Source of the DNA: Chitinophaga pinensis
Lineage (GTDB): Bacteria; Bacteroidota; Bacteroidia; Chitinophagales; CAIOSU01
Length of the DNA: 64,000 bases
NCBI GenBank assembly: GCA_945901065.1
Contig: CAMDKI010000011.1
Span: 16,149 to 80,148, forward strand
Reading direction: 5' to 3'
The notes beneath the pieces are model-generated. The model ran no database searches. It worked only from the letters and a program-made list of their open reading frames with translations, and was not told the DNA's origin. Positions 1-52,834 of the stretch are shown piece by piece. Within the stretch, counting starts at the first letter, position 1. Each line of letters begins with the position of its first letter. The translations under genes and the position numbers were made by a program.

Positions 1-2004
1 CGGACGCTGCGTTGCAATAATCAAATGTATACCAATGGCACGAGCCAACTGTGCCAAACGGGCAATGGGTGTTTCTACCTCTTTTCCGGCGGTCATCATT
101 AAATCGGCAAACTCATCCACTACCAACACAATGTAAGGCAAAAACTGGTGGCCTTTATTCGGGTTTAAGCGGCGGGCCACAAACTTAGCGTTGTATTCCT
201 TAATGTTACGCACCTGCGCCTCTTTCAAAAGGTCGTAGCGGTTGTCCATTTCAATACAAAGGGCATTAAGGGTATGGATAACCTTCTTGGTATCGGTAAT
301 AATGGCCTCTTCCTCGCCAGGTAATTTAGCTAAGTAATGTTTCTCAATCATTGCATACAAGGTCAATTCTACCTTTTTAGGGTCGACCAACACAAACTTT
401 AGTTGAGAAGGGTGTTTTTTGTAAAGCAATGAAACCAAAATGGCGTTCAAGCCTACTGATTTACCTTGGCCCGTAGCACCCGCCATTAATAAGTGTGGCA
501 TTTTAGCCAAATCGGTGGTAAATATTTCGTTGGCAATGGTTTTACCAATAACGATAGGCAACTCGGCCTTACTGTTCTGGAACTTCTCTGATGCTATCAA
601 CGAGTGCATACTCACCACTTCCTTCTTCACGTTTGGCACTTCTATACCTATAGTACCCTTGCCCGGGATTGGAGCAATAATGCGGATACCTAAGGCTGCC
701 AAACTCAAAGCTATGTCATCCTCAAGGTTCTTGATTTTGGAGATACGCACGCCAGCAGCAGGTACAATTTCGTATAAAGTAACTGTTGGACCAATGGTAG
801 CCTTTATCTTCGATATCTCGATATTGTAGTTCTGTAGTGTTTCAACAATCTGGTTTTTATTCTTCTCCAGTTCTTCAGTATCTACTAAAATCTTCTCGCT
901 GCCATGTATTCTCAGTAAATCCAAAGGCGGAAATTGAAAATCCCTCAAATCCAACGTTGGATCATATTCACCCAAATCATTGAATATCTCTCCGGCCTCT
1001 TTCTCCACTATCCCTTCATTCACTTCCAGCGCAAGGTCTTCGTAAGGTGCCACTATTTCGTGGGGTGTTTCGGGTTGGTTTACTTCAAACGAAAGGCCCG
1101 GAACAGCGGCAGTGGTAGCCGCAGTGGCCGCAACTGGCGTAATAATGTCAAAATCCAACGGGCCATCTTCCTCTTCCTCTTTGCCGTCAACCTCCCAAGG
1201 TAAATCAACTTCCTCTTCGGTCATATCTTCTTCCACAGCGTTTACCCCATCGTTTTCGGTCTCTATCTTCTTCGTCCAGTTTTTTACATCCGTATCTTCA
1301 TCGTCGTATTGGAAACCTGGAACACGGTTCTTGTTATTGGCAGCATTGGCTTCTGCTACTTTAGCAAATACTTTGGCAGGTATAAGTTTGCCAGGATTAT
1401 AGTTGAACTTGAATACCAAGTATGCCAGCAAGCCAAAACCTAATAATGCAGCCGTGCCCAACATGCCCATAAACTCCATCAACCACTCGCTTACCGAACG
1501 ACCAAAAGCACCGCCCCAGGGAAAACTCATCACCTGAAACACAAACGCTAACGCTACTGAGAAGTATACTAAACAAAGAAAACCGTACTTGAAAATACGA
1601 CCCAACTGCAAGGGCAAACCAAAACCCCACTTTAAGCCAATAGAAAAAAGTATGCCTACAATGGCCCACGAAGCAACCCCAAACAAGTTGTAATAAAACT
1701 GGTGCGACAGCACTGCGCCAAAGCGGCCGAGCATGTTATCCACCGTTACGTCGCTGTTCAGGATCATCCTCCACGAAAACTCCAGCACGCTGCTTTGGTC
1801 TTTCTCCCAAGTAAAAAGATACGAAAACATGGCCGCACCAATAAGCAGGCCCAAGAACATACTGGCCAATCCCAAGATGCGCGGCGTGCGCTCATCGGCC
1901 AGCATAGTGTTGATAGCGGAAGGCTTTGCCTTGGCAGCGGCTTCTTCACCATCAATAGGCTCTTTACCTTTGGTGCTCTTTTGATTTTTTTCTTTGACTG
2001 CCAT
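1..2004 (-). CDS. ftsK: DNA translocase FtsK/SpoIIIE (N-terminal 668 codons; 3' end lies beyond window start)
   Basis: The minus-strand frame is open from position 1 to the ATG at 2004. It is absent from the ORF track because no stop lies in the window. My translation gives N-terminal TM helices, an acidic linker, then PHLLMAGATGQGKS (Walker A), LVVDEFADLMM (Walker B) and IATQRP. The plus-strand ORFs at 440-2052 are antisense shadows. Confidence 0.9.
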   Translation of the reverse strand, partial: MAVKEKNQKSTKGKEPIDGEEAAAKAKPSAINTMLADERTPRILGLASMFLGLLIGAAMFSYLFTWEKDQSSVLEFSWRMILNSDVTVDNMLGRFGAVLSHQFYYNLFGVASWAIVGILFSIGLKWGFGLPLQLGRIFKYGFLCLVYFSVALAFVFQVMSFPWGGAFGRSVSEWLMEFMGMLGTAALLGFGLLAYLVFKFNYNPGKLIPAKVFAKVAEANAANNKNRVPGFQYDDEDTDVKNWTKKIETENDGVNAVEEDMTEEEVDLPWEVDGKEEEEDGPLDFDIITPVAATAATTAAVPGLSFEVNQPETPHEIVAPYEDLALEVNEGIVEKEAGEIFNDLGEYDPTLDLRDFQFPPLDLLRIHGSEKILVDTEELEKNKNQIVETLQNYNIEISKIKATIGPTVTLYEIVPAAGVRISKIKNLEDDIALSLAALGIRIIAPIPGKGTIGIEVPNVKKEVVSMHSLIASEKFQNSKAELPIVIGKTIANEIFTTDLAKMPHLLMAGATGQGKSVGLNAILVSLLYKKHPSQLKFVLVDPKKVELTLYAMIEKHYLAKLPGEEEAIITDTKKVIHTLNALCIEMDNRYDLLKEAQVRNIKEYNAKFVARRLNPNKGHQFLPYIVLVVDEFADLMMTAGKEVETPIARLAQLARAIGIHLIIATQRP

Positions 2005-2110
2005 ATATGTATTGGTGCAAAGTGTAAAATTACGAAACGCCAATCACATTGAAGGGGTAATGCAAAATAGGCTATAAACAGGTGTCGTTTGTTGTGGACA
2101 TTCTTTCTTA

Positions 2111-2166
2111 GTATCAAGTAGTGAGTATCAAGTACTTTCGATTTACGAGGTACGATTTACGATTGA
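2111..2166. repeat. Heptamer array, forward arm (GTATCAA then CGATTTA dialects), 8 units
   Basis: Reads GTATCAA GTAGTGA GTATCAA GTACTTT CGATTTA CGAGGTA CGATTTA CGATTGA with no gaps. Confidence 0.9.
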
Positions 2167-2238
2167 ATGGTCGAAAAATTAAGGAATTTGACCGGAGATA
2201 AAACTAAAAAAACAATTCACACAACATTTTATACGCAG

Positions 2239-2301
2239 TACTAACTACTTGATACTTGATACTTGATACTCACTACTTGATACTCACTACTTAATACTAA
2301 A
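2239..2301. repeat. Heptamer array, reverse arm (TACTTGA dialect), 9 units
   Basis: Reads TACTAAC TACTTGA TACTTGA TACTTGA TACTCAC TACTTGA TACTCAC TACTTAA TACTAAA. Positions 2260-2283 are the perfect reverse complement of 2111-2134. Confidence 0.9.
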
Positions 2302-2353: not shown

Positions 2354-3628
2354 ATGGAAATGCAACTAAATCACCCACTTAGCCTTTCTGATACTTTTGC
2401 GAAGCGTTTTAAGCATATACGCGCTCAAACGGAAGCTATTTGTGCGCCTTTGAAAGTGGAGGATTATGTGGCACAGCCCATCGTGGATGTTAGCCCCCCG
2501 AAATGGCATTTAGCCCATACTACGTGGTTTTTCGAGAATTTCATATTGTTGCCGCACTTGCCTGGCTACAAGGTTTTTGATACCGACTTTAGCTATATGT
2601 TCAATAGTTATTACGAGAGTGTGGGTGAGCGTGTATTGCGCGACCACCGTGGCCACATGACCCGCCCTAGTGTTGTTGAGGTGTATGAGTATAGGCGCTA
2701 TGTAGATGTAGCCATGCTGCAGTTTTTTGATAAAAATGATGAATTGGATGCGGCATTAAAATACACATTGGAGATTGGCTTACAACACGAGCAGCAGCAT
2801 CAAGAGCTGTTGGTTACGGATATTAAATACATACTCGGGCACCACCCATTGCATCCCGTGTACAAGGTAATTGAGTTGCCAGAAACCGGAACTGCACTAC
2901 CGCCGCAATGGCACGAAATAGCCGAAGGAATTTATTATATTGGATACGATGGTAGTGGATTTTGTTTTGATAATGAACAAGGTGTGCATCAAGTTTACCT
3001 GCAACAATGTCGCATCATGAACCGCCCCATAACCAATGCAGAGTACTTGCGGTTTATGGAAGATGGAGGTTATGCCAATCACCAATGGTGGTTTGCTGAT
3101 GCCTGGGGATGGCTAAGCGAAATGGGCATAAAAGCCCCACACTATTGGGAGCAACATAACGGCCAATGGTACCAATACCAATTGGATGGCTTAAAACCCA
3201 TTGACCCAAATGCACCCGTAACCCACGTAAGTATGTATGAGGCTGCGGCCTATGCCATGTGGGCCGGCAAGCGCCTACCTACCGAACAGGAATGGGAAGT
3301 AGCTGCCAAAACATTGCAGCCTGGAGGGCCTAGTGAGGGCAACTTCCTAGAGCAAAGTAAATTTCAATCGTTACCTACCCAAGAAAATAGCCAATGGTAT
3401 GGCGATGTTTGGGAATGGACCAACAGCGCCTACCTGCCTTACCCCTATTACCAGCGGCCCGATGGTGCGCTGGGCGAGTACAATGGTAAGTTTATGATTA
3501 ACCAAATGGTATTGCGCGGCGGCTCTTGTTCTACGCCACAAAGCCACATTAGGCCTACTTACCGTAACTTCTTTCAGCCGGATAAAAGGTGGCAGTTTAC
3601 GGGTTTTCGTTTGGCGGAGCACGTTTAG
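2354..3628 (+). CDS. egtB: EgtB-like sulfoxide synthase (DinB-like N-domain plus FGE-sulfatase-like C-domain)
   Basis: 424 aa. The motifs WHLAHTTWFFENF and LQHEQQHQELL fit a DinB-type metal site. The C-terminal motifs RLPTEQEWEVAA, GDVWEWTNS and VLRGGSCSTP fit an FGE-sulfatase fold. No egtD-like methyltransferase is adjacent. Confidence 0.75.
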   Translation: MEMQLNHPLSLSDTFAKRFKHIRAQTEAICAPLKVEDYVAQPIVDVSPPKWHLAHTTWFFENFILLPHLPGYKVFDTDFSYMFNSYYESVGERVLRDHRGHMTRPSVVEVYEYRRYVDVAMLQFFDKNDELDAALKYTLEIGLQHEQQHQELLVTDIKYILGHHPLHPVYKVIELPETGTALPPQWHEIAEGIYYIGYDGSGFCFDNEQGVHQVYLQQCRIMNRPITNAEYLRFMEDGGYANHQWWFADAWGWLSEMGIKAPHYWEQHNGQWYQYQLDGLKPIDPNAPVTHVSMYEAAAYAMWAGKRLPTEQEWEVAAKTLQPGGPSEGNFLEQSKFQSLPTQENSQWYGDVWEWTNSAYLPYPYYQRPDGALGEYNGKFMINQMVLRGGSCSTPQSHIRPTYRNFFQPDKRWQFTGFRLAEHV

Positions 3629-3631
3629 CAA

Positions 3632-3690
3632 GTACCGAGTAGCAAGTAGCAAGTATTTTTGATTTACGAAGTACGATTTACGATTGAATG
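3632..3690. repeat. Heptamer array, forward arm, paralog of 2111-2169
   Basis: Reads GTACCGA GTAGCAA GTAGCAA GTATTTT TGATTTA CGAAGTA CGATTTA CGATTGA ATG. Positions 3653-3690 match 2132-2169 at 35 of 38 positions. It begins 3 nt after the egtB stop codon. Confidence 0.9.
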
Positions 3691-3808
3691 TTGGTTAATT
3701 TAAGAGTTGTAAATTGCAACAAAACAAGAGTAATAATTTAAAGGCCATAATACCTTCCAATCTCGTAATCAGGACTTTGCAAAACCTATTTAAAATTTTG
3801 ATAAGTAG

Positions 3809-3850
3809 GTCTTGATACTTGATACTCACTACTTGATACTTATTCTGTAT
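3809..3850. repeat. Heptamer array, reverse arm (TACTTGA dialect)
   Basis: Reads GTCTTGA TACTTGA TACTCAC TACTTGA TACTTAT TCTGTAT. Confidence 0.85.
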
Positions 3851-12478: not shown

Positions 12479-12537
12479 AACCACCCCCAACCCCTCCTTT
12501 TTCTAGGCTGCACAGGCTTGGCGAAGGAGGGGAGCTG
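12479..12537. repeat. CCTCC/GGAGG hairpin repeat, copy 2 (forward)
   Basis: AACCACCCCCAACCCCTCCTTT - 23-nt loop - AAGGAGGGGAGCTG. Confidence 0.8.
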
Positions 12538-12640: not shown

Positions 12641-12719
12641 CAGCTCCCCTCCCTGCCTACGGCAGGCAGGCTTCGAATGGCCTTTTTGCGCGCTGCGAAA
12701 GGAGGGGTTGGGGGTGGTT
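12641..12719. repeat. CCTCC/GGAGG hairpin repeat, copy 3 (reverse orientation)
   Basis: CAGCTCCCCTCC ... AAAGGAGGGGTTGGGGGTGGTT. Its 22-nt end is the exact reverse complement of 12479-12500. It has an inner CCTGCC-TAC-GGCAGG hairpin. Confidence 0.8.
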
Positions 12720-12832: not shown

Positions 12833-13084
12833 ATGGCTCATATCAAAATAGCAGAAACCAAGGAACATATCCATCAATTGATTGATCAATTGAACGATCC
12901 TGATTTGCTTGACCTGTATTTAAAACTGCTGTTAAAACATGTCCAATTGGCAACGTTTGAACCCACTGCAGATGAAATTCAAGCTATTGAAGAAGGCTTA
13001 GACTCCATCAAAAAACACGGCACGGTTTCGCATGAAGATGCTGTGGCTAGGTTGCGCAGTAAGTATCCTAATTTGATACTGTAA
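12833..13084 (+). CDS. Putative antitoxin of a type II TA pair
   Basis: 83 aa, acidic and helical. Its stop TAA overlaps the toxin ATG (TAATG at 13082-13086). I recognise no domain; the call rests on pairing with the ParE/RelE-like ORF. Confidence 0.6.
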   Translation: MAHIKIAETKEHIHQLIDQLNDPDLLDLYLKLLLKHVQLATFEPTADEIQAIEEGLDSIKKHGTVSHEDAVARLRSKYPNLIL

Positions 13085-13377
13085 TGAAAGCAATTCGATG
13101 GTCAGAACAGGCTATTGAAGATTACGACCGTAATCTGGAGTACCTCCAAATTGAGTGGACCGAACGCGAAGAAATCATCTTCAACTTAAAAGTAGCCAAA
13201 ACCCTGAGGAACATATCTACAATGCCAGAATTATACCCAGTGGCCATTATCGGTTCAACGATCGTAAGAAAAGCAGTGATAACCACACAAATCACCCTGT
13301 ACTACCTTGTTTTAGAGGACCAAATTCTGCTGGTGAGGTTCAAAAACAACTTTCAAGCACCCAATAGCGGATTGTAA
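13084..13377 (+). CDS. ParE/RelE-family type II toxin
   Basis: 97 aa. The pattern MKAIRWSEQAIEDYDRNLEYL...ITLYYLVLEDQILLVRF matches the ParE/RelE plasmid-stabilisation toxin layout. Confidence 0.7.
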   Translation: MKAIRWSEQAIEDYDRNLEYLQIEWTEREEIIFNLKVAKTLRNISTMPELYPVAIIGSTIVRKAVITTQITLYYLVLEDQILLVRFKNNFQAPNSGL

Positions 13378-13464
13378 CTCACAAACCCACGCTACCAAAA
13401 CCCACCCTCCAAGGTTATCAACACCACACCAGTATTTCCCCCAAACTAAAACCCATACTTTCAA

Positions 13465-13472
13465 TACTTTTG
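13465..13472 (+). promoter_or_regulatory. Candidate -7 promoter box (TACTTTTG) for the FMN reductase/SBP genes
   Basis: An exact match to TAnnTTTG lies 31 nt upstream of the ATG at 13503. No clear -33 element was seen. Confidence 0.3.
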
Positions 13473-13502
13473 TAATTACAATAGTACTTCGTAAATAGAA
13501 CC

Positions 13503-14030
13503 ATGACTTACACCATCATCGCCTCAACCAACCGCCCCGGCAGCAACACGCTGAAGGTGGCAAAGCAATACCAAATACTAATGCGCGAAGCAGGCATTGA
13601 GGCCAAGCTGCTATCGCTGGAAGTACTGAATGGATTGCCCATAATTGATGCGGACATGTACGACGAGCAACCTGCCAGCCTAAAGGCCATACAGGAGGAA
13701 TACCTAAGCGCCGATAAGCTAGTAATGATAGTACCAGAATACAACGGCAGCGCTTCAGGCATAACTAAACTGTTTATTGATGCTACCGACGTGAAGCACT
13801 ACTGGAACCACAAGAAGATATGCCTAGTGGGCGTGGCCGATGGCCGTGGCGGCAACCTGCGCGGACTGGAGCACCTAAGCGGCTTGATGCTGCATATGAA
13901 AATGAACGTGTTCCATCTGCGCCAACCGTTGGCACAGATCAATAAGGAGTTGGATGAAAATGGTAGGTTTGTGAACGAGGGCACCATCAATATGCTGCGC
14001 GCCCAAATTGAAGCCTACAAAGCGTTTTAA
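13503..14030 (+). CDS. NAD(P)H-dependent FMN reductase-like oxidoreductase
   Basis: 175 aa, flavodoxin-like. The N-terminus IIASTNRPGSNTLKVA and the motif VPEYNGSASG are typical of the FMN_red family. Confidence 0.75.
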   Translation: MTYTIIASTNRPGSNTLKVAKQYQILMREAGIEAKLLSLEVLNGLPIIDADMYDEQPASLKAIQEEYLSADKLVMIVPEYNGSASGITKLFIDATDVKHYWNHKKICLVGVADGRGGNLRGLEHLSGLMLHMKMNVFHLRQPLAQINKELDENGRFVNEGTINMLRAQIEAYKAF

Positions 14031-14033
14031 ACT

Positions 14034-15701
14034 ATGACCAAAACTATATTTAACCGCAACAATACCTCAATCGTACATCGTACATCGTACATCGTACATT
14101 ACGTTGTAGTAGCGTTAATCATTGTATTGGCGACTAGTTGCGGCGGTGACGGCAAAACAACGACCAACAACACTTTCAAGTTTAACATGACCAGCGGCGT
14201 AACCTCGCTAGATCCAGCCTTTGCCCGCGACCAAAGTAATATTTGGATGGTGAATGCCATGTTCAACGGGCTATTGCAGTTTGACGAACTATTGAACCTA
14301 CAGCCGTGCCTAGCCAAAAGCTGGACTATTAGTGAAGATGCACTGACCTATACCTTCGCCCTACGAAACGATGTGTACTTTCATAATGATGAAGTATTTG
14401 GCGGCAATAAACGAAAACTAACGGCAGCCGATGTTGCATATACCTTCAACCGACTGATTGACCCTAACACTGCCTCGCCGGGTGCGTGGATATTCAATGG
14501 CCGGATAGCAGAAAACAACCCTTTTGAAGCGCTTAACGATAGTACTTTTGTAATGCGCTTAAAGGAGCCCTTTGGCCCGATGCTGAGCCTGCTGACGTTA
14601 CAATACACCTATATAGTGCCCAAAGAGGCCACCGAGAAATACGGCAAGGAGTTTAGGTTGCATCCGGTGGGCACCGGGCCTTTTATGCTGAAAATGTGGG
14701 CAGAGGGCAACCAGTTGGTAATGCAAAAGAACCCTGACTACTTTGAGCGCGAAGGCGACCAGCAACTACCTTATCTGGATAATGTGCAGGTTTATTTCAT
14801 CCAGAACAAATACTCGGAATACTTAGAGTTTAATCAAGGCGGCTTGGACTTTATAAGCAGTGTGGATGCCACCACCGTAAACGAACTATTGGCTACCGAT
14901 GGCGGCCTAAAGCCTGAGCATAACGGCAAAATGACCTTGTACAAAATACCTTACCTCAATAGCGAATACTTGGGTTTTCTGTTGGATGAAACCAGCCCCG
15001 ATGCCAATAAGGCACTGCTAAACAAGCAGGTGCGCCAAGCCATTAACTACGGTTTCAACCGCAAGGAGATGCTGCAATACCTGCGCAACAGCGTTGGGCG
15101 CCCAGCCAATGCAGGCTTTGTGCCGTATGGCTTGCCTTCGTTTGACGAAAAAGCCACCCCCGGCTATAGCTATGATGTGGCTAAGGCTAAGCAACTGCTA
15201 GCCGAAGCGGGCTACCCAGGTGGCAAAGGCTTGCCTGCCATTAAGCTGCTTACCAACCCCACTTATAAAGACATAGCCGAGTACCTGCAAAAGCAATTGG
15301 CCGAAATCGGTATCAATATTGACGTAGAGATAGTGCAGCCATCGCTGCTGCGCGACCAAATGCTGAAAAGCAAAGCCACCTTTTTCCGCGGCTCATGGAT
15401 AGCTGACTACCCAGATGCGGAGAGCTTTTTATCGGTGTTTTATGGCAATGTGCCTGCCCCGCCCAACTATACCCGTTTCCGTAATGCGGAGTTTGACAGT
15501 CTGTACACCCTTTCGCTAAAAGAAACCGACCAAACCAAACGCTTTGCACTGTACCAAGCCCTTGACCGTATTGTAATTGAGGAAGCACCCATTGTGCCGC
15601 TATACTATGACGAGGTGCTGCGCTTTGTGCGCACTGGCGTAACAGGCCTAGAGCCCAATGCCATGAACTTGTTGGATTTGAAAAGGGTAAAGGTAAAGTA
15701 A
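14034..15701 (+). CDS. ABC transporter substrate-binding lipoprotein (family 5, peptide/nickel type)
   Basis: 555 aa. Lipobox LATSC follows a long n-region, and the rest resembles SBP_bac_5 throughout (e.g. GTGPFML, NPDYF). No permease or ATPase is adjacent. The n-region is encoded by a perfect 4x heptamer repeat (14071-14098). Confidence 0.85.
   Translation: MTKTIFNRNNTSIVHRTSYIVHYVVVALIIVLATSCGGDGKTTTNNTFKFNMTSGVTSLDPAFARDQSNIWMVNAMFNGLLQFDELLNLQPCLAKSWTISEDALTYTFALRNDVYFHNDEVFGGNKRKLTAADVAYTFNRLIDPNTASPGAWIFNGRIAENNPFEALNDSTFVMRLKEPFGPMLSLLTLQYTYIVPKEATEKYGKEFRLHPVGTGPFMLKMWAEGNQLVMQKNPDYFEREGDQQLPYLDNVQVYFIQNKYSEYLEFNQGGLDFISSVDATTVNELLATDGGLKPEHNGKMTLYKIPYLNSEYLGFLLDETSPDANKALLNKQVRQAINYGFNRKEMLQYLRNSVGRPANAGFVPYGLPSFDEKATPGYSYDVAKAKQLLAEAGYPGGKGLPAIKLLTNPTYKDIAEYLQKQLAEIGINIDVEIVQPSLLRDQMLKSKATFFRGSWIADYPDAESFLSVFYGNVPAPPNYTRFRNAEFDSLYTLSLKETDQTKRFALYQALDRIVIEEAPIVPLYYDEVLRFVRTGVTGLEPNAMNLLDLKRVKVK
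14071..14098 (+). repeat. Perfect (TCGTACA)x4 heptamer repeat inside the 5' end of the SBP lipoprotein CDS
   Basis: Four identical contiguous units followed by a degenerate TTACGTT. They encode part of the signal-peptide n-region (SIVHRTSYIVHY). Confidence 0.95.
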
Positions 15702-15704
15702 ATT

Positions 15705-15746
15705 AGTTGCGGGTTGCGGGTTGCGAGTTACGGGTTACGAGTTAAT
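15705..15746. repeat. Heptamer array (GGTTGCG dialect), 6 units
   Basis: Reads AGTTGCG GGTTGCG GGTTGCG AGTTACG GGTTACG AGTTAAT and starts 3 nt after the SBP stop codon. Confidence 0.9.
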
Positions 15747-15793
15747 ATTTTCAAATAGATGATTTAATTTCGGATTCAGACGCAAACATCGCC

Positions 15794-16078
15794 ATGAGCT
15801 TAACAATTCTCCACGAACAACCCGACCATAAAGGGTCGTTTTACATTGAGCAAGATGGCAAACGTGTTGCCGAAATGACCTACGTAATGGCAGGTGAAAA
15901 GAACCTGATTATTGACCATACCGAGGTATCAGATGCGTTGCGCGGTCAAAAGGCCGGCGCACAAATCTTGGCTGAGTTAGTAGCCTATGCTCGGAAAGAA
16001 GGTATAAAAGTTCGCCCACTGTGCCCCTTTGCTAAATCGGTGTTTGACAAGACACCTGAGTACGCCGATGTGCTGTGA
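15794..16078 (+). CDS. Small GNAT-like N-acetyltransferase (YjdJ type)
   Basis: 94 aa. HTEVSDALRGQKAGAQILAELVAYARKEGIKVRPLCPFAK resembles the minimal GNAT-like domain. Confidence 0.7.
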   Translation: MSLTILHEQPDHKGSFYIEQDGKRVAEMTYVMAGEKNLIIDHTEVSDALRGQKAGAQILAELVAYARKEGIKVRPLCPFAKSVFDKTPEYADVL

Positions 16079-16099
16079 AACTTAATTGCAAAATATGTA

Positions 16100-16140
16100 A
16101 GCTCCTCCCCATTTTTCAGGGGGAGGTTGGGAGGGGGTAA
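16100..16140. repeat. CCTCC/GGAGG hairpin repeat, copy 4
   Basis: AGCTCCTCCCC-ATTTTTCAG-GGGGAGGTTGGGAGGGGGTAA, between the convergent GNAT and AhpD-like genes. Confidence 0.8.
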
Positions 16141-16239
16141 TGTTCGAGCAGAAAACCCCAAACCACCTAATTCGCCACAACGAACAATATCACCAAAAGG
16201 TCGAATCTGATTTCGCAACAACCGCTTTCGTTGAGGTTT

Positions 16240-16758
16240 TTACCCTTTCTTAAACGCCCCCAAGTAATCATCCAACTCCACCTGCAGCACATTATTGAAT
16301 AGATTGGTGGCTACCATGATACCTGCAAAGCCAATCAAGTTTACTACAAAAGCTTCGCCATACTTATCCTTAAAAGGCACTATCATTTCGGCGGGCACTT
16401 GGTTGTAGTTGGTGGCAATTTGTTGGCCCAATAATACCAAGGCTTGTTGCTCCTCGGATAGCACCAGTTCATCTGGGTTTTCGCACCACTCCATCAATAT
16501 CTTCCGGAAGAAGGTTGAACAAATCAGGCAATCGGTTTCGTTACTAATGGCATGTGCAAAAAGTATCACCGACCGCTCCCCAATTACTTTAGCTACTTCA
16601 TCTTTCAAAGGATACCAGCTCATGTAGCTGCCCAAGGTGGCTGGGCTGTGCGCCATGGTTCGTTTCATGTTGGTCATGCGGCTGTGGGTGGCCACTTGCT
16701 CGTCCCATAATACTTTGGCGGCGGCTGGTGCCTCATCGTATGATGATTGCGAAATCAT
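16240..16758 (-). CDS. AhpD/carboxymuconolactone decarboxylase-like protein
   Basis: The ATG at 16758 forms an ATGA overlap with the upstream stop (16755). It is all-helical with a CLIC (CxxC) motif in ISNETDCLICSTFF. The ORF-track start at 16806 is probably an over-extension. Confidence 0.6.
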   Translation of the reverse strand: MISQSSYDEAPAAAKVLWDEQVATHSRMTNMKRTMAHSPATLGSYMSWYPLKDEVAKVIGERSVILFAHAISNETDCLICSTFFRKILMEWCENPDELVLSEEQQALVLLGQQIATNYNQVPAEMIVPFKDKYGEAFVVNLIGFAGIMVATNLFNNVLQVELDDYLGAFKKG

Positions 16759-18365: not shown

Positions 18366-19505
18366 TTACTTACCCATTTTTTGTTTTAAAGCATATGTTA
18401 CTGCGCCAACGGCAATGGGTCTAGTGTGCGGGTTGCGGTATATCTGCCAAATAGCCTTCCATGCCGATGGCTTGAACAGCTTTTTCAATATACCAGGCGA
18501 ACCTTTCCTAACACCCTCGCTTGAGTCGCTATTTGCCACTTCCCCACCCGAGCGAGTCATCCAGAAAACACGGTGTGCTTCTGCCAACCAATGTTTTTCG
18601 TACTCCGCCCAGTTATTTAAGGCTTCTATTTCATTAGCAAAAGCCTCTTGCTGGCGGGTTTCAATAATGCCTGTTGAAGTATTAATGTTGATGGGCAACC
18701 AATTATAAGAGCCGCCTGCTTGGTCAAACTCAGCAAACAATATAGCCGATTGGCTAATATAACCTCTATTGGCTTGCAGCTTCAAATCGAAAACAAAGTT
18801 GCCCAACGAATAAAACACCTGATTCCCCTTAACCGACTCAACGCCCTGCAATGTGTGCGAGTGATGCGCCACCACCCACGATTGGGCGTTTAAAGCAAGG
18901 CTTCGCAGCCGTTTCCTCCGTTCAGGTGCCGGATAACGGGTGTATTCTTCGCCACCGTGATAGTTAACAATCAATTGCTTGCCTGCCTTTTGAAAGTCCA
19001 TTATTGCCCTAGAAATCTCTTTTTGACTCGTCTCGCAAAGCACACCAACTTGGCTATTACTGGCTATCATCCCTTCATGGTGGGCAATGCCTATCATACC
19101 TCGCGAAATAGCGTTGGCGGCAAGTTCTATGGGTTTTAGGGCTTGCTCCAAGTTTTTACCTGCGCCAAACCACTGGCCACCGTGCTTTTCAATCAAGGCA
19201 ACGGTTTCTTCAAAACCGGCTACACCATGATCGAACAAATGATTGTTGGCCAAATTGAACACCTTGATATTACGCGCGATTAAATAAGGTATGGCCTCGG
19301 GCGGGCTATGCAGTGCAACGCCATTAATCTTTCTAGTGGGTATATTGGTGGCAGGGCCTTCGAGATTTACTACCACAAAATCTTGTTCGCGCAATTGCTG
19401 TAGCAATTCTGGCGCAAATATTTCCTTGCCTTCCAGCAGTTGCTGCCGGAAAATACCAGAGAAATTCACATCGCCAGCAAAGGCTATTTTTAGCTTTTGT
19501 GCCAT
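18366..19505 (-). CDS. CapA/PGA_cap family metallophosphatase-fold protein
   Basis: The motifs FAGDVNF, NLANNHLFDHG, NYHGGEEY and VVAHHSHTLQG are present. The ATG at 19505 (MAQKLKIAFAGD) overlaps the flippase stop by 16 nt, and the stop abuts the next ATG with zero gap. Confidence 0.8.
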   Translation of the reverse strand: MAQKLKIAFAGDVNFSGIFRQQLLEGKEIFAPELLQQLREQDFVVVNLEGPATNIPTRKINGVALHSPPEAIPYLIARNIKVFNLANNHLFDHGVAGFEETVALIEKHGGQWFGAGKNLEQALKPIELAANAISRGMIGIAHHEGMIASNSQVGVLCETSQKEISRAIMDFQKAGKQLIVNYHGGEEYTRYPAPERRKRLRSLALNAQSWVVAHHSHTLQGVESVKGNQVFYSLGNFVFDLKLQANRGYISQSAILFAEFDQAGGSYNWLPININTSTGIIETRQQEAFANEIEALNNWAEYEKHWLAEAHRVFWMTRSGGEVANSDSSEGVRKGSPGILKKLFKPSAWKAIWQIYRNPHTRPIAVGAVTYALKQKMGK

Positions 19506-20779
19506 ACTGCCTCCCAAGCTTTTTGCCAGCCTAACTTATCGGCACCACTAATGTACCAAATATAGCCAAGCATGAACACATTAAACAATACCCCTACTAA
19601 AGCGAAACCAGCTACAGCCAAAACTGGTTCGCCTGCATAACCAAACCATCCTAACACTGCTGTTCGGGCAATAAAAATGGATACATTGTACCATAGCTCA
19701 AAACCCAATCGTGCCTTTATATTGAGCACGTAAGTAAGCGGATTGACGGTAAACAATAGCAAAAACCAAGGGGCCAAATATTGTGCAAATACCCCCGCTT
19801 CCAACCACTTAGGGCCCAGTGTCCAAGCAAATAACTGCGGACCAGCTATACCCAATAACAATACGGGCAAAATGCCCAAAGCAAACAGATTGCGGGTAGT
19901 TTTCACTACCAGTGCCAAAAACGAACTATGATGCTCCAACTCGTGCTCGCGGGCTGCCCGCTGATAAAATACTTGCCCGAACGATTGTGCCACCAGCAAC
20001 ACTGGAGTACCCAACAGCCTATTGGCCATGCTAAACTGCCCCACTATGGCCGAATTGAAAAAGTACTGCAACAGATATACGGGCACTTGCCTAGAGAAGG
20101 TATTCAGCAACGTGCTGGCCGATGAATACAACGGAAAGTGCTTGTATTCAACGGCTACCAAACGCATTTCGGTGCGCTGGAAGAACTGCCCAAAATTGCT
20201 AAAAGATAGTGCCGTTACAGAGAATATTAATGCTAATAACTGCCCCACAACAAAACCGACCAGTAGCCCAATAGCCCCCAAACCAGCATAACCCAAATAT
20301 AAACTAGTAAGCCCTGTGCTAAATGCCTGCACTACTTTTGCTACCGCTATCGTGCGATATTGGTTGTTACGATTGAGGTATACAGTAAGTGGCTGCAATA
20401 TGGCACCCAATAGACAAGATATGGGCAACCAATGCAGCAAAGCCCATATTTTGGACTCGGCAACCCAACCACTCAGCAATTGTTCGGCGGCAAATACACC
20501 CACAAATACAAAAACACTAACCCCAAAACCTATTAGCCAGCATAACCCCAAAAGGCTTGCTGCGCGATTGTTTTCTTTAGGTAGCATTATGGCATTGTCG
20601 TAGCGAGCGTTAGAGAGCTCGGCCAGTATCAGTTGGGTGGCGGCAAATATGGCCATTACCCCAAAATCAACATCAGTATACACCCTAGCCAATAGCAGCG
20701 TTATGCCTAATGTAAAAACCTGTGCCAAGCCCGAGCCGGTCATTAATACTACAGTATTGCGCAAAAAACCAGATGCCAT
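19490..20779 (-). CDS. MOP-superfamily (Wzx-like) polysaccharide/oligosaccharide flippase
   Basis: It is polytopic throughout, with roughly 12 or more hydrophobic helices by eye, and starts at MASGFLRNTVVLMTGSGLAQ (ATG 20779). The ORF-track extension to 20866 is a translation of a heptamer array. Confidence 0.8.
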   Translation of the reverse strand: MASGFLRNTVVLMTGSGLAQVFTLGITLLLARVYTDVDFGVMAIFAATQLILAELSNARYDNAIMLPKENNRAASLLGLCWLIGFGVSVFVFVGVFAAEQLLSGWVAESKIWALLHWLPISCLLGAILQPLTVYLNRNNQYRTIAVAKVVQAFSTGLTSLYLGYAGLGAIGLLVGFVVGQLLALIFSVTALSFSNFGQFFQRTEMRLVAVEYKHFPLYSSASTLLNTFSRQVPVYLLQYFFNSAIVGQFSMANRLLGTPVLLVAQSFGQVFYQRAAREHELEHHSSFLALVVKTTRNLFALGILPVLLLGIAGPQLFAWTLGPKWLEAGVFAQYLAPWFLLLFTVNPLTYVLNIKARLGFELWYNVSIFIARTAVLGWFGYAGEPVLAVAGFALVGVLFNVFMLGYIWYISGADKLGWQKAWEAVWHKS

Positions 20780-20787
20780 TAGCACAA

Positions 20788-20850
20788 AGATGGAATATGA
20801 AATGCGAAATGAGAAATGGAAAAGAAAGAGATGACAAATGAAAAACAAAA
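20788..20850. repeat. Heptamer array (AATGnGA dialect), ~9 units
   Basis: Reads AAGATGG AATATGA AATGCGA AATGAGA AATGGAA AAGAAAG AGATGAC AAATGAA AAACAAA, directly upstream (minus-strand sense) of the flippase ATG at 20779. Confidence 0.8.
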
Positions 20851-20925
20851 GATACCGGAAAATCACTTTGTAACTTGTACAAGGTACATCGCACTTTGTC
20901 CTTACAGCATTAGTTCCTAACTTGG

Positions 20926-25558: not shown

Positions 25559-25574
25559 GTTTTGTTAGCATTAA

Positions 25575-25609
25575 GTATCAAGTACCAAGTATCAAGTATC
25601 AAGATAACC
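25575..25609. repeat. Heptamer array, forward arm (GTATCAA dialect), 5 units
   Basis: Reads GTATCAA GTACCAA GTATCAA GTATCAA GATAACC, 17 nt after the ABC ATPase stop. Confidence 0.9.
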
Positions 25610-25634
25610 TATTTCCATAGCAAATGTGAAAACA

Positions 25635-25675
25635 AAAGCCTCGAAACATATCATGTTCCGAGGCTTTAATTTATT
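25635..25675. terminator. Bidirectional rho-independent terminator between ABC ATPase gene and queA
   Basis: A 15-bp stem with one mismatch (AAAGCCTCGAAACAT / ATGTTCCGAGGCTTT) and a 3-nt loop, with an A-run before and a T-rich run after. It sits in the spacer of the GTATCAA module. Confidence 0.8.
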
Positions 25676-25690
25676 ATTTACATATCAAGG

Positions 25691-25774
25691 TACTTAATAC
25701 TCAATACTTGATACTTAATACTCAATACTTGATACTTGATACTTGATAATTGATACTTGATACTTGATACTTTA
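25691..25774. repeat. Heptamer array, reverse arm (TACTTGA dialect), 12 units
   Basis: Reads TACTTAA TACTCAA TACTTGA TACTTAA TACTCAA TACTTGA TACTTGA TACTTGA TAATTGA TACTTGA TACTTGA TACTTTA. It abuts the queA stop codon (25775-25777). Confidence 0.95.
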
Positions 25775-26821
25775 TTACAAAATCAACATTGCATCGCCAT
25801 AGGTAAAGAAGCGGTAATTTTCCTTAATGGCTTCCTCATAAGCTTTCATTATTAGATCGTAACCACCAAATGAAGCGTTCATGATCAACAAGCTTGACTT
25901 AGGTAAGTGAAAGTTTGAAATCATGCAATTGGCAATACTAAACTCGTGTGGTGGGTGAATAAACAAGTTCGTCCAACCTTCCATGGGTTTAAGCAAGTGC
26001 TGTGCCGATACTGCCGACTCCATAGATCGCATACTAGTGGTGCCTACTGCACAAATTTTATGCTTACCTTCTTTACCTTTATTTACAATATCGCAGTTCT
26101 TTTGATTGATAAAAAAGTACTCGGCATCCATTTTATGCTTGCTCAAATCTTCCACATCAATGGTACGGAAAGTACCCAGACCAACGTGCAACGTAAGTTC
26201 AGCAAAGTTTACACCCTTAATCTCTAGGCGCTTCATCAACTCCTTACTAAAGTGCATTCCAGCAGTTGGGGCAGCCACAGCGCCTTCGTTGCTTGCAAAT
26301 ACGGTTTGGTAGCGGTCTTTATCTAAATCTTCTGGTTTGCGTTTAATGGCTTTTGGCAGTGGCGTTTCGCCAAGACTGTATAGCAATGCCTTAAACTCTT
26401 CATAACTACCATCGTGCAGAAAACGAATCGTACGGCCCCGTGAGGTGGTATTGTCAACAACTTCCGCTACCAAATCATCTTCGCCAAAGTAAAGTTTGTT
26501 GCCTACCCGTATTTTACGGGCAGGGTCAACCAATACGTCCCAAAGTTTATTCTCAGCATTCAATTCACGAAGCAAGAACACTTCAATTTTGGCTCCAGTT
26601 TTTTCCTTTTTGCCATACATACGCGCCGGAAACACTTTCGTGTTGTTCAACACCATTACATCGCCATCATCAAAGTAACCCAAAACGTCGCGAAACATCT
26701 TGTGTTCAATAGTGCCTGTAGCACGATTGACTACCATCAAGCGGCTTTGGTCACGTTCATCATTAGGGTAAGAAGCAATTAGGTTGGGAGGTAATTCAAA
26801 GTTAAACTGGGATAACTTCAT
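25775..26821 (-). CDS. queA: S-adenosylmethionine:tRNA ribosyltransferase-isomerase
   Basis: 348 aa. [19 protein letters not shown]...RDQSRLMV and [12 protein letters not shown] are QueA hallmarks. Confidence 0.9.
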
Positions 26822-51335: not shown

Positions 51336-51426
51336 AATTTGAAAATGAGGTAATTTGATAATTTGGAAATGAAAAGACATTAAAAAAGTCATTTTCAAAT
51401 TCGCACATTTTCAAATTTTCAAATTA
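51336..51426. repeat. Octamer-array module (AATTTGAA dialect): two inverted arms with 12-nt spacer
   Basis: The forward arm reads AATTTGAA AATGAGGT AATTTGAT AATTTGGA AATGAAAA (51336-51375). The reverse arm 51388-51426 is the complement of AATTTGAA AATTTGAA AATGTGCG AATTTGAA AATGAC. It lies between convergent genes and overlaps the E2 stop codon. Confidence 0.9.
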
Positions 51427-52680
51427 AACAAGCATCCTCACTGGGTCTTCCAACAACGACTTGAAGGTTTGAAGGAACTGAGCACCTGTGGCACCATCCA
51501 CTACACGGTGATCGCAAGATAGAGTAACTTTCATAATAAGCTCATGGCGCAGCTCGCCATCATCATCCATTACTAAGCGCTTACTGATACCGCCAACGGC
51601 CAATATACATGCATCGGGTGGATTAATTATGGCTGTAAACTCCTCAATACCAAACATACCCAAATTGGAGATGGTGAAGGTATTGCCCTGCATTTCGGCA
51701 GGCTGTAGTTTTTTGTCTTTTGCTTTGCCAGCTAGTTCCCTTACTTCGGCAGCAATGTGAGATAGACCTTTGTTATCGGCAAAACGGATAACTGGCACCA
51801 ACAATCCTTCCTCAACGGCCACGGCTACACCAATATGGATGTGGTGGTTGTAACGTATTTTATCGCCCAACCAAGAGCTGTTTACTTTCGGGTGGCGACG
51901 CAAAGCAGCAGCAGCGGCTTTCAATACCAAATCATTGAACGATATTTTCACTGGTGAGAAAGCGTTCAATCCTTCGCGGGCAGCGGTGGCCTTATCCATG
52001 TTTATCTCCATGGTAAGGTAAAAGTGGGGGGCACTGAATTTGCTCTCGCCCAAGCGCTTCGCTATGGTTTTGCGCATTTGCGATACCGTTACCTCTTCAT
52101 AGCTCTCCACTCCTACCACAGCAGGCAGTTGCACCGATTGCTGCGCAGGTTCGGCTTTTTTGGCGGCTGGTTGGTATTGTTCCACATCACGTTTCACAAT
52201 ACGTCCATCATCGCCACTACCTTTTAGATCGCTTACACTTATACCTTTATCCTCAGCTATTTTACGGGCCAATGGCGATATTTTCAAGCGACTATCATCG
52301 GCCACTGGCTCTGGTGCTATTGGCTCAGGTTTTGCTTCTTCTTGAGGCTTATCTTCTTGCTGTGCCGCTGGTTTAGCCTCCTCCTTCTCCGTATTAGTAT
52401 CGCTCCCCTTTTCCGAGCCTAACAATGGTTTATAGTCTTCGCCTTTTTTACCCACGATGGCCAAAATACCATTTACCTGCACCGCCGCGCCAGCTTCAAC
52501 GCCAATGTACAATAGCACACCTTCTTGGTAGCTTTCTAGCTCCATGGTTGCTTTATCGGTTTCCACTTCGGCCAATAGGTCGCCCGACTTTACATTGTCG
52601 CCAACCTTTTTGTGCCAAGCCACTATCACCCCTTCTTCCATCGTATCGCTCATGCGCGGCATTCGAATCACTTCAGCCAT
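51424..52680 (-). CDS. 2-oxoacid (pyruvate) dehydrogenase complex E2 dihydrolipoamide acyltransferase
   Basis: ATG at 52680 (MAEVIRMPRMSDTMEEG). It has a lipoyl site VETDKATMELES, an Ala/Pro/Glu linker, an E3-binding segment (ISPLARKIA) and the catalytic motif DHRVVDG. The ORF-track extension to 52788 translates an octamer array. Confidence 0.9.
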   Translation of the reverse strand: MAEVIRMPRMSDTMEEGVIVAWHKKVGDNVKSGDLLAEVETDKATMELESYQEGVLLYIGVEAGAAVQVNGILAIVGKKGEDYKPLLGSEKGSDTNTEKEEAKPAAQQEDKPQEEAKPEPIAPEPVADDSRLKISPLARKIAEDKGISVSDLKGSGDDGRIVKRDVEQYQPAAKKAEPAQQSVQLPAVVGVESYEEVTVSQMRKTIAKRLGESKFSAPHFYLTMEINMDKATAAREGLNAFSPVKISFNDLVLKAAAAALRRHPKVNSSWLGDKIRYNHHIHIGVAVAVEEGLLVPVIRFADNKGLSHIAAEVRELAGKAKDKKLQPAEMQGNTFTISNLGMFGIEEFTAIINPPDACILAVGGISKRLVMDDDGELRHELIMKVTLSCDHRVVDGATGAQFLQTFKSLLEDPVRMLV

Positions 52681-52687
52681 AATTATT

Positions 52688-52834
52688 AATTTGAAAATTT
52701 GAAAATTAGGTAATTTGGAAATGGTGTGTTTAGTAATGCAATTAAAAAGGGGAGGTAAACTCAACTTGAAAAGTCTGGACTTAGCCAAAAATCATTTCCA
52801 AATTTTCAAATTTCCTCATTTTCAAATTGAATTA
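52688..52834. repeat. Octamer-array module (AATTTGAA dialect): two inverted arms with ~63-nt spacer
   Basis: The forward arm reads AATTTGAA AATTTGAA AATTAGGT AATTTGGA AATGGTGT (52688-52727). The reverse arm 52791-52834 is the complement of AATTTGAA AATGAGGA AATTTGAA AATTTGGA AATGAT and overlaps the M16 peptidase stop codon. Confidence 0.9.

Follow-up and report, generated by a model that had tools for sequence, protein, structure and literature searches.

A heptamer array in the translated signal-peptide region of a family-5 solute-binding protein gene is probably a spacer-type repeat held in frame

Results and discussion

In this study, the 5′ end of a gene for a family-5 extracellular solute-binding protein (SBP) was analyzed in a 64,000-nt stretch of Bacteroidota DNA, hereafter the window, and compared with its relatives. 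Judged from these sequences, the perfect heptanucleotide array in this region is probably a spacer-type array of the NTCGTAM family that has become fixed in the translated n-region of a lipoprotein signal peptide, its length being kept constant by the reading frame, and is not a contingency locus. The array belongs to a known kind of feature, the dispersed heptamer arrays, and in this case lies within a signal peptide. A first-pass annotation of the window had taken it for a candidate slipped-strand ON/OFF switch. The anatomy described there, a translated 5′ tract upstream of the lipobox in which gain or loss of one unit truncates the product, was upheld, as was its caveat that the tract may be a spacer array; the switch was not. 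The features are listed in Table 1.

Table 1. Positions of the features discussed, in window coordinates unless a related locus is named
Feature	Position	Strand	Basis or remark
NTCGTAM array, intergenic, ATCGTAA ATCGTAC CTCGTAA ATCG	2139..2164	-	Tandem Repeats Finder, motif search
NTCGTAM array, intergenic, ATCGTAA ATCGTAC TTCGTAA ATC	3661..3685	-	Tandem Repeats Finder, motif search
NADPH-dependent FMN reductase gene, upstream of the SBP gene	13503..14030	+	Pfam; stop 14028-14030 abuts SBP start
SBP gene, family 5 (peptide/nickel type), probable lipoprotein, 555 aa	14034..15701	+	Pfam PF00496, homologues
SBP start codon ATG	14034..14036	+	3 nt past upstream stop, same frame
Lipoprotein signal-peptide coding region, MTKTIFNRNNTSIVHRTSYIVHYVVVALIIVLATSC	14034..14141	+	Translation; orthologue comparison
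Perfect heptamer array, (ATCGTAC)x4 + AT	14070..14099	+	Tandem Repeats Finder, sequence, translation
TAG met after loss of one unit (3 or 6 units)	14107..14109	+	Simulated unit numbers
TAG met after gain of one unit (5 or 8 units; 2 units too)	14135..14137	+	Simulated unit numbers
GTTGCGG-family heptamer array, intergenic, 5.6 copies	15706..15744	+	Tandem Repeats Finder; 4 nt past SBP stop
MITE-like element	L066 2933-3040; L004 2917-3030; L005 2935-3030 and 4621-4710		

The solute-binding protein gene and its signal peptide

The ORF matched Pfam SBP_bac_5 with an E value of 1.9e-87 and a score of 294 bits (gathering cut-off, 32.4). Its signal peptide, MTKTIFNRNNTSIVHRTSYIVHYVVVALIIVLATSC, consists of an n-region of 22 aa followed by a hydrophobic core and the lipobox Cys. 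By inspection of the sequence, K3, R8, and R16 are located in the n-region, the core is YVVVALIIVLA, and TS-C follows; the Cys of the lipobox (...VLATSC) is codon 36 (14139-14141), and this Cys followed by G or N is conserved across all orthologues. The N-terminus has the features of a predicted SPase II lipoprotein signal peptide, and the homologues of the SBP all possess signal peptides. Searches with tblastn showed that the adjacency of the FMN-reductase and SBP genes is kept in relatives up to Pedobacter, where the gap is approximately 490 nt. In the relatives with the FMN-reductase gene upstream (n = 10), the ATG lies 2-22 nt from the reductase stop.

Upstream of the FMN-reductase gene, a small antitoxin-like ORF and a ParE-like toxin gene (Pfam ParE_toxin, E = 4.7e-4) were observed at 12833-13377, adjoined by two GC-rich inverted repeats (12479-12500 and 12698-12719; 22 nt, 100% complementary). 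The pair was present in the window and in L063/L067, was absent from L069, L066, and L060, and is probably a mobile insertion.

The heptamer array and its family

Tandem Repeats Finder described the array at 14070-14099 as having period 7, 4.3 perfect copies (100% matches), and the consensus ATCGTAC; the (TCGTACA)x4 tract first reported at 14071-14098 differs from it only in register. The array had 23 consecutive period-7 matches. In our own period scan, the window contained five period-7 arrays scoring at least 12 and from zero to one at each remaining period between 4 and 12, and none was found at periods 4 to 12 in 20 shuffled versions of the window; the array is therefore far beyond chance. 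The unit ATCGTAC is free of stop codons in all frames, and the array encodes IVHRTSYIVH, codons 13-22, in the n-region of the signal peptide. RNA folding of 14015-14145 gave a z of -0.51 (no structure signal), Rfam searches of the window and four related loci at gathering thresholds returned no matches, a scan of 13300-16300 for sigma-70 promoters and terminators gave nothing exceeding the expectation from shuffling, and no inverted partner near the array was found in the window.

A total of 14 period-7 arrays were detected in the window by Tandem Repeats Finder, and 13 of them were intergenic, though coding sequence makes up approximately 88% of the window. Only at period 7 were tandem arrays in excess of chance. 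The array at 20790-20853 is only an apparent coding exception, since the ATG at which its gene likely starts lies beyond it, and no other gene in the window carried a coding-region tract like that of the SBP gene. On the minus strand at 20787-20853, a period-7 plus period-22 repeat with TTTCNCA-like units was seen immediately before the ATG that is probably the true start (at approximately 20778); the GTG start of the gene listed as 19490..20866 is probably spurious.

Intergenic arrays share the unit of the coding array, in agreement with the earlier caveat that the tract may be one of the spacer arrays of the genome. A search with TCGTACATCGTAC, allowing up to two mismatches, gave 9 matches in the window against 0.63 expected, including the arrays at 2139-2164 and 3661-3685, and a further intergenic array of the NTCGTAM family was located at 1754-1784 of L060, the 81% relative. 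In a census of related loci, the families TACTTGA, NTCGTAC, and TCCAYGG were common to distant genomes. The array thus has the traits of a dispersed heptamer family: a period-7 excess, a unit present at several unlinked loci, and a mainly intergenic location with the in-ORF copy peripheral.

Several other repeats were observed. Arrays of the TACTTGA family at window 2110-2300, 3626-3845, and 25567-25772 form intergenic inverted pairs approximately 90-150 nt apart, with stems of 25-40 bp and RNA fold z values of -6.1, -3.0, and -10.0, respectively. The inverted pair at 25560-25780 lies between convergent genes, around a classical terminator-like hairpin. These pairs may be MITE-like or long-hairpin elements. 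A composite element, consisting of (AGTATCA/AGTAGCA)n, a T-rich linker, and (GTACGAT/TTACGAT)n, was found at window 2110-2168 and 3626-3690 and at 1709-1787 of L060; both window copies end in GATTGAATG, and (GTACGAT/TTACGAT)n corresponds to the coding-array family in reverse complement. Period-8 arrays, AATTTGAA and ATTTTCAA, which are mutually inverted, are located at window 51336-51425 and 52688-52828, on either side of the gene at 51424..52788.

In L060, inverted NTYGTAC arrays with nearly alike variant units flank the FMN-reductase gene (1754-1784, minus strand; 2453-2485, plus strand). This arrangement was absent from the window and its close relatives. The idea of an invertible segment was dropped, as the arrangement is not conserved and only L060 has an inverted copy, approximately 700 nt upstream.

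Conservation and history of the 5′ end

Ten DNA alleles with the array were collected, comprising 8 distinct sequences with 81-97% protein identity. They were from the window, L063, L002, L035, L067/L068, L003/L070, and L069 (94-97%) and from L060/L061 (81%), drawn from independent JGI, ENA, Logan, and NCBI samples (metagenomes and MAGs). Only in the window copy was the array perfect; the other 7 distinct sequences were imperfect, as exemplified by ATCGTAC TTCGTAC CTCGTAC ATCGTGC AT in one relative and ATTGTAC ATCGTAC CTTGTAC ATCGTAC AT in L060.

Orthologues in L064 and L066 (87-91% identity) and in L004/L005 had no array, and unrelated repeat-derived N-termini occupied its place. In L066, L004, and L005, the replacing sequence is a palindromic MITE-like element of approximately 95 nt with TTAACCACAA... 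termini, read as ...NHKGHKG...LSALRVFSLCSLW...; this element (TTAACCACAAAGG...CGTTGTGGTTAA) is in frame and encodes the n-region and part of the h-region. In L005, a sister copy lies in the spacer that follows this SBP gene on its 3′ side. A different palindromic, repeat-rich sequence was found in L064 where the array would be, and more distant homologues had ordinary short signal peptides.

In a neighbor-joining tree built from DNA of the mature part, the window was nested in the 94-97% clade, as sister to L063 in 107 and to L067 in 92 of 200 bootstraps. All other members of this clade have TTCGTAC as unit 2 and CTCGTAC as unit 3 (typical array, ATCGTAC TTCGTAC CTCGTAC ATCGTxC). Since the window is nested among relatives with such units, the perfection of its array is derived. 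The branch leading to the window carries two changes in the array, both of which homogenized units; this suggests occasional intra-array conversion or slippage, and the changes are unlikely as random substitutions. In the same tree, the array-less L064 and L066 branched between both array-bearing groups, so the 5′ end must have recombined or been replaced more than once.

Between the window and L060, the array was identical at 27 of 30 nt, compared with 23-25% protein identity in the flanking n- and h-regions and 57% identity at synonymous sites in the mature part. As the array has diverged far less than the signal peptide around it, simple neutral drift of a passive array is insufficient as an account. 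A lineage-wide maintenance process would be one answer: the heptamer repertoire (TACTTGA, NTCGTAC, and TCCAYGG) may be kept by something sequence-specific, either a binding protein or copying and homogenization, in which case the array would be a functional cis-site and its re-homogenization a footprint. Intergenic arrays turn over within approximately 3-5% divergence, and unit sequences persist across approximately 20% protein divergence. We regard such a process as conceivable at a rather low probability.

The same conservation, next to n- and h-regions that could not be aligned, would also be expected if a protein or RNA recognized the NTCGTAC repeat itself, for example as the site of a translational or coupling regulator past the start codon, with the encoded peptide incidental. 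In keeping with this, array variation fell mostly on the first and third positions of the unit, leaving the GTAC core largely intact; the three heptamer families persist in both distant genomes; and a regulatory role has been hypothesized for intergenic heptamers located by start codons, such as TAACTGA (PMC4679880). Substitutions in the arrays of the close clade, approximately 4 synonymous and 8 non-synonymous, were roughly neutral, indicating no clear constraint at the peptide level; as a candidate explanation in its own right, peptide-level constraint gained no support either way from this ratio. However, the array-less orthologues in L064, L066, and L004/L005 indicate that the array is dispensable for the SBP gene, neither an RNA structure nor an Rfam match was obtained, and the statistics concern 10 codons only, of which 8 had identical third positions compared with 53% gene-wide (P ~0.1). 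A functional nucleic-acid element is therefore considered unlikely.

Array length among relatives

The earlier prediction that a one-unit change truncates the protein was reproduced when unit numbers were simulated. Arrays of 1, 4, and 7 units stayed in frame; with 3 units, translation ran into the TAG at 14107-14109, and with 5 units into the TAG at 14135-14137, 12 codons past the array.

In all 10 alleles, which are consensus assemblies and hence blind to minority length variants inside a population, the array consisted of exactly 4 units plus 2 nt (30 nt), was in frame, and differed by substitutions only. The end of the array was exactly 13 codons before the Cys in all array-bearing alleles. 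The close homologues returned and the 90% clusters contained no OFF, truncated, or frameshifted alleles, and the proteins in the best matches and 90% clusters were 555, 555, 555, and 559 aa long. Invariance of unit number among related strains, the outcome that the first-pass annotation had named as speaking against its switch, was what was observed at the between-strain level.

The intergenic array located 4 nt past the SBP stop served as a control. Its 5 units in the window correspond to 4 in the orthologous array of L069, and in other relatives the spacer was swapped for unrelated arrays, such as TCCACGG TCCATAG TCGATGG TCCATGG, or for other sequence. The 3′ spacer of the SBP gene differed even between L067 and L068, the SBP proteins of which are identical. 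Arrays of similar size thus change copy number and turn over wholesale in this lineage on the same time-scale. That only the coding array is frozen while the neighboring spacer arrays vary fits a constraint from the reading frame and not a switch.

The spacer between the SBP and GNAT acetyltransferase genes (window 15702-15793), compared among the window, L063, L002, L067, L068, L003, L070, and L069, had at least three unrelated versions in strains with 94-97% identical SBPs; the part in common was only the last approximately 13 nt, TTCGGATTCAGAC.

A slipped-strand phase-variation switch with a reversible OFF state, perhaps newly arisen in the window strain after the tract became perfect, has several points in its favor. 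The tract is perfect, its 7-nt unit is not a multiple of three, it lies in the 5′ part of an ORF, and its unit number would alter expression through early stops. Its 4 units exceed the permissive threshold of at least 3 used for 7-mers in Haemophilus influenzae surveys (PMC2651432), the two homogenizing changes behind its perfection suggest turnover at the level of units, and an intergenic array of similar size has changed copy number in this lineage. A precedent exists in the heptanucleotide switch in the 5′ coding region of neuO. Against these points, none of the 10 alleles varied in length or was OFF, so that the length polymorphism with ON and OFF forms expected of a phase-variable simple sequence repeat (SSR) locus was absent; 7 of the 8 distinct arrays were interrupted by substitutions; and truncated variants were missing from the close homologues and the 90% clusters. 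Variation by substitution only has been counted as inconsistent with phase variation (PMC2651432), and neisserial pentamer tracts of 1-4 units have been classed as non-phase-variable (PMC5953494). An SBP_bac_5 lipoprotein is also an atypical product for a contingency function, and the window holds no second gene with a coding tract. The switch is accordingly judged improbable.

Translation of the array

A codon scan confirmed the earlier placement of the tract between the lipobox and the sole usable in-frame start, the ATG at 14034. No in-frame ATG, GTG, or TTG occurs between this codon and the TTG at 14127, located 4 codons ahead of the Cys, and the next in-frame ATG is at 14187. Alternative starts downstream were considered and rejected, as initiation at the near-cognate codons ATC and ATT would place no more than 8 residues ahead of the Cys. 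A later start would give a signal peptide too short for export, which puts the array inside the translated n-region. In the frame comparison, which took in eleven orthologous 5′ ends, the frame of the SBP contained no stop from ATG to Cys in 11 of 11 alleles, and the other two frames contained from 1 to 6 stops each. An 18-nt deletion in L035, located immediately upstream of the array, is also in frame. Although nearly all other heptamer arrays of the window are intergenic and an n-region of 22 aa is unusually long, it is highly improbable that the array is intergenic or 5′-UTR sequence read through from the upstream ATG, with the true start located downstream, given the absence of any ATG, GTG, or TTG from the array up to TTG 14127, the single open frame in alleles of unrelated sequence, and the in-frame indel.

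Comparison with known heptamer repeats

Phase-variable loci have been defined by reversible switching at approximately 1e-5 per generation or more in a clonal population (PMC11868660), and proven heptamer switches have 13-53 units (PMC13001214, PMC2651432). In neuO of Escherichia coli K1, carried by the CUS-3 prophage, 3-53 repeats and commonly approximately 20 are found, 66% of the alleles in 64 genomes are OFF, and minority tract lengths are measurable in culture (PMC13001214). The SBP array resembles the (AAGACTC)n repeat of neuO in having a 7-nt unit in the 5′ part of the ORF, in that all repeat frames are open, and in the need for an in-frame unit number. It differs in having 4 units, no length polymorphism among 10 alleles, no OFF allele, and interruptions in most alleles. 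The 7-bp repeats of hmw1A/hmw2A in H. influenzae are located in the promoters, number 13-38 units, and have a graded effect on transcription (PMC2651432); they are likewise heptanucleotide SSRs associated with genes for exported proteins, whereas the array here is coding, of 4 units, and invariant.

Abundant intergenic heptamer repeats have been reported in Beggiatoaceae, Cyanobacteria, and some Bacteroidetes, and those inside ORFs are found at the extreme start or end of proteins (PMC4679880). The repeats of the window are similar to the TAACTGA-type repeats, the cyanobacterial STRR heptamers, and the "long SSRs" of Mrazek et al. 2007 in their genome-wide excess of 7-nt arrays, most of them intergenic and near starts or stops. 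Further similarities to these repeats are the small number of unit families at many loci and the peripheral position of the rare in-ORF copies. The units are different from those of the TAACTGA-type survey, being NTCGTAM, TACTTGA, TCCAYGG, and GTTGCGG, and the lineage was outside that survey. A second difference is that one array here is stably translated in a lipoprotein signal peptide over approximately 20% protein divergence.

Conclusions

The reading preferred here, a spacer-type array fixed in the n-region, would operate as follows. The coding array is a member of NTCGTAM, a dispersed, lineage-wide heptamer family that normally resides in the intergenic spacers of this Bacteroidota genome, a Sphingobacteriales/Chitinophagales-type MAG, and a captured spacer array would be its origin. 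With the SBP start directly after the FMN-reductase stop, the entire "spacer" as far as the hydrophobic core is read as a long n-region, and the array is translated because this "spacer" falls inside the SBP ORF. The n-region of a signal peptide is largely insensitive to sequence. The array would be tolerated for this reason and because ATCGTAC is stop-free in every frame. Once inside the ORF, its length would be held at 30 nt by the frame, with point substitutions and occasional homogenization between units as the remaining changes, and the rate of slippage at 4 units would probably be too low to matter.

The comparative data argue that the SBP gene is constitutively in frame, and it deserves little weight as a candidate for phase variation. 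In heptamer-rich genomes, a short, perfect repeat of a non-triplet unit within the 5′ part of a gene is by itself no evidence of a contingency locus, and comparison of alleles settles the matter quickly. Which repeat fills the segment from start to lipobox depends on what the genome carries: heptamer units in the window and some relatives, and in others a MITE-like palindrome or a different repeat-rich palindromic sequence. This SBP gene thus illustrates the tolerance of the n-region and a route by which spacer repeats can become coding sequence.
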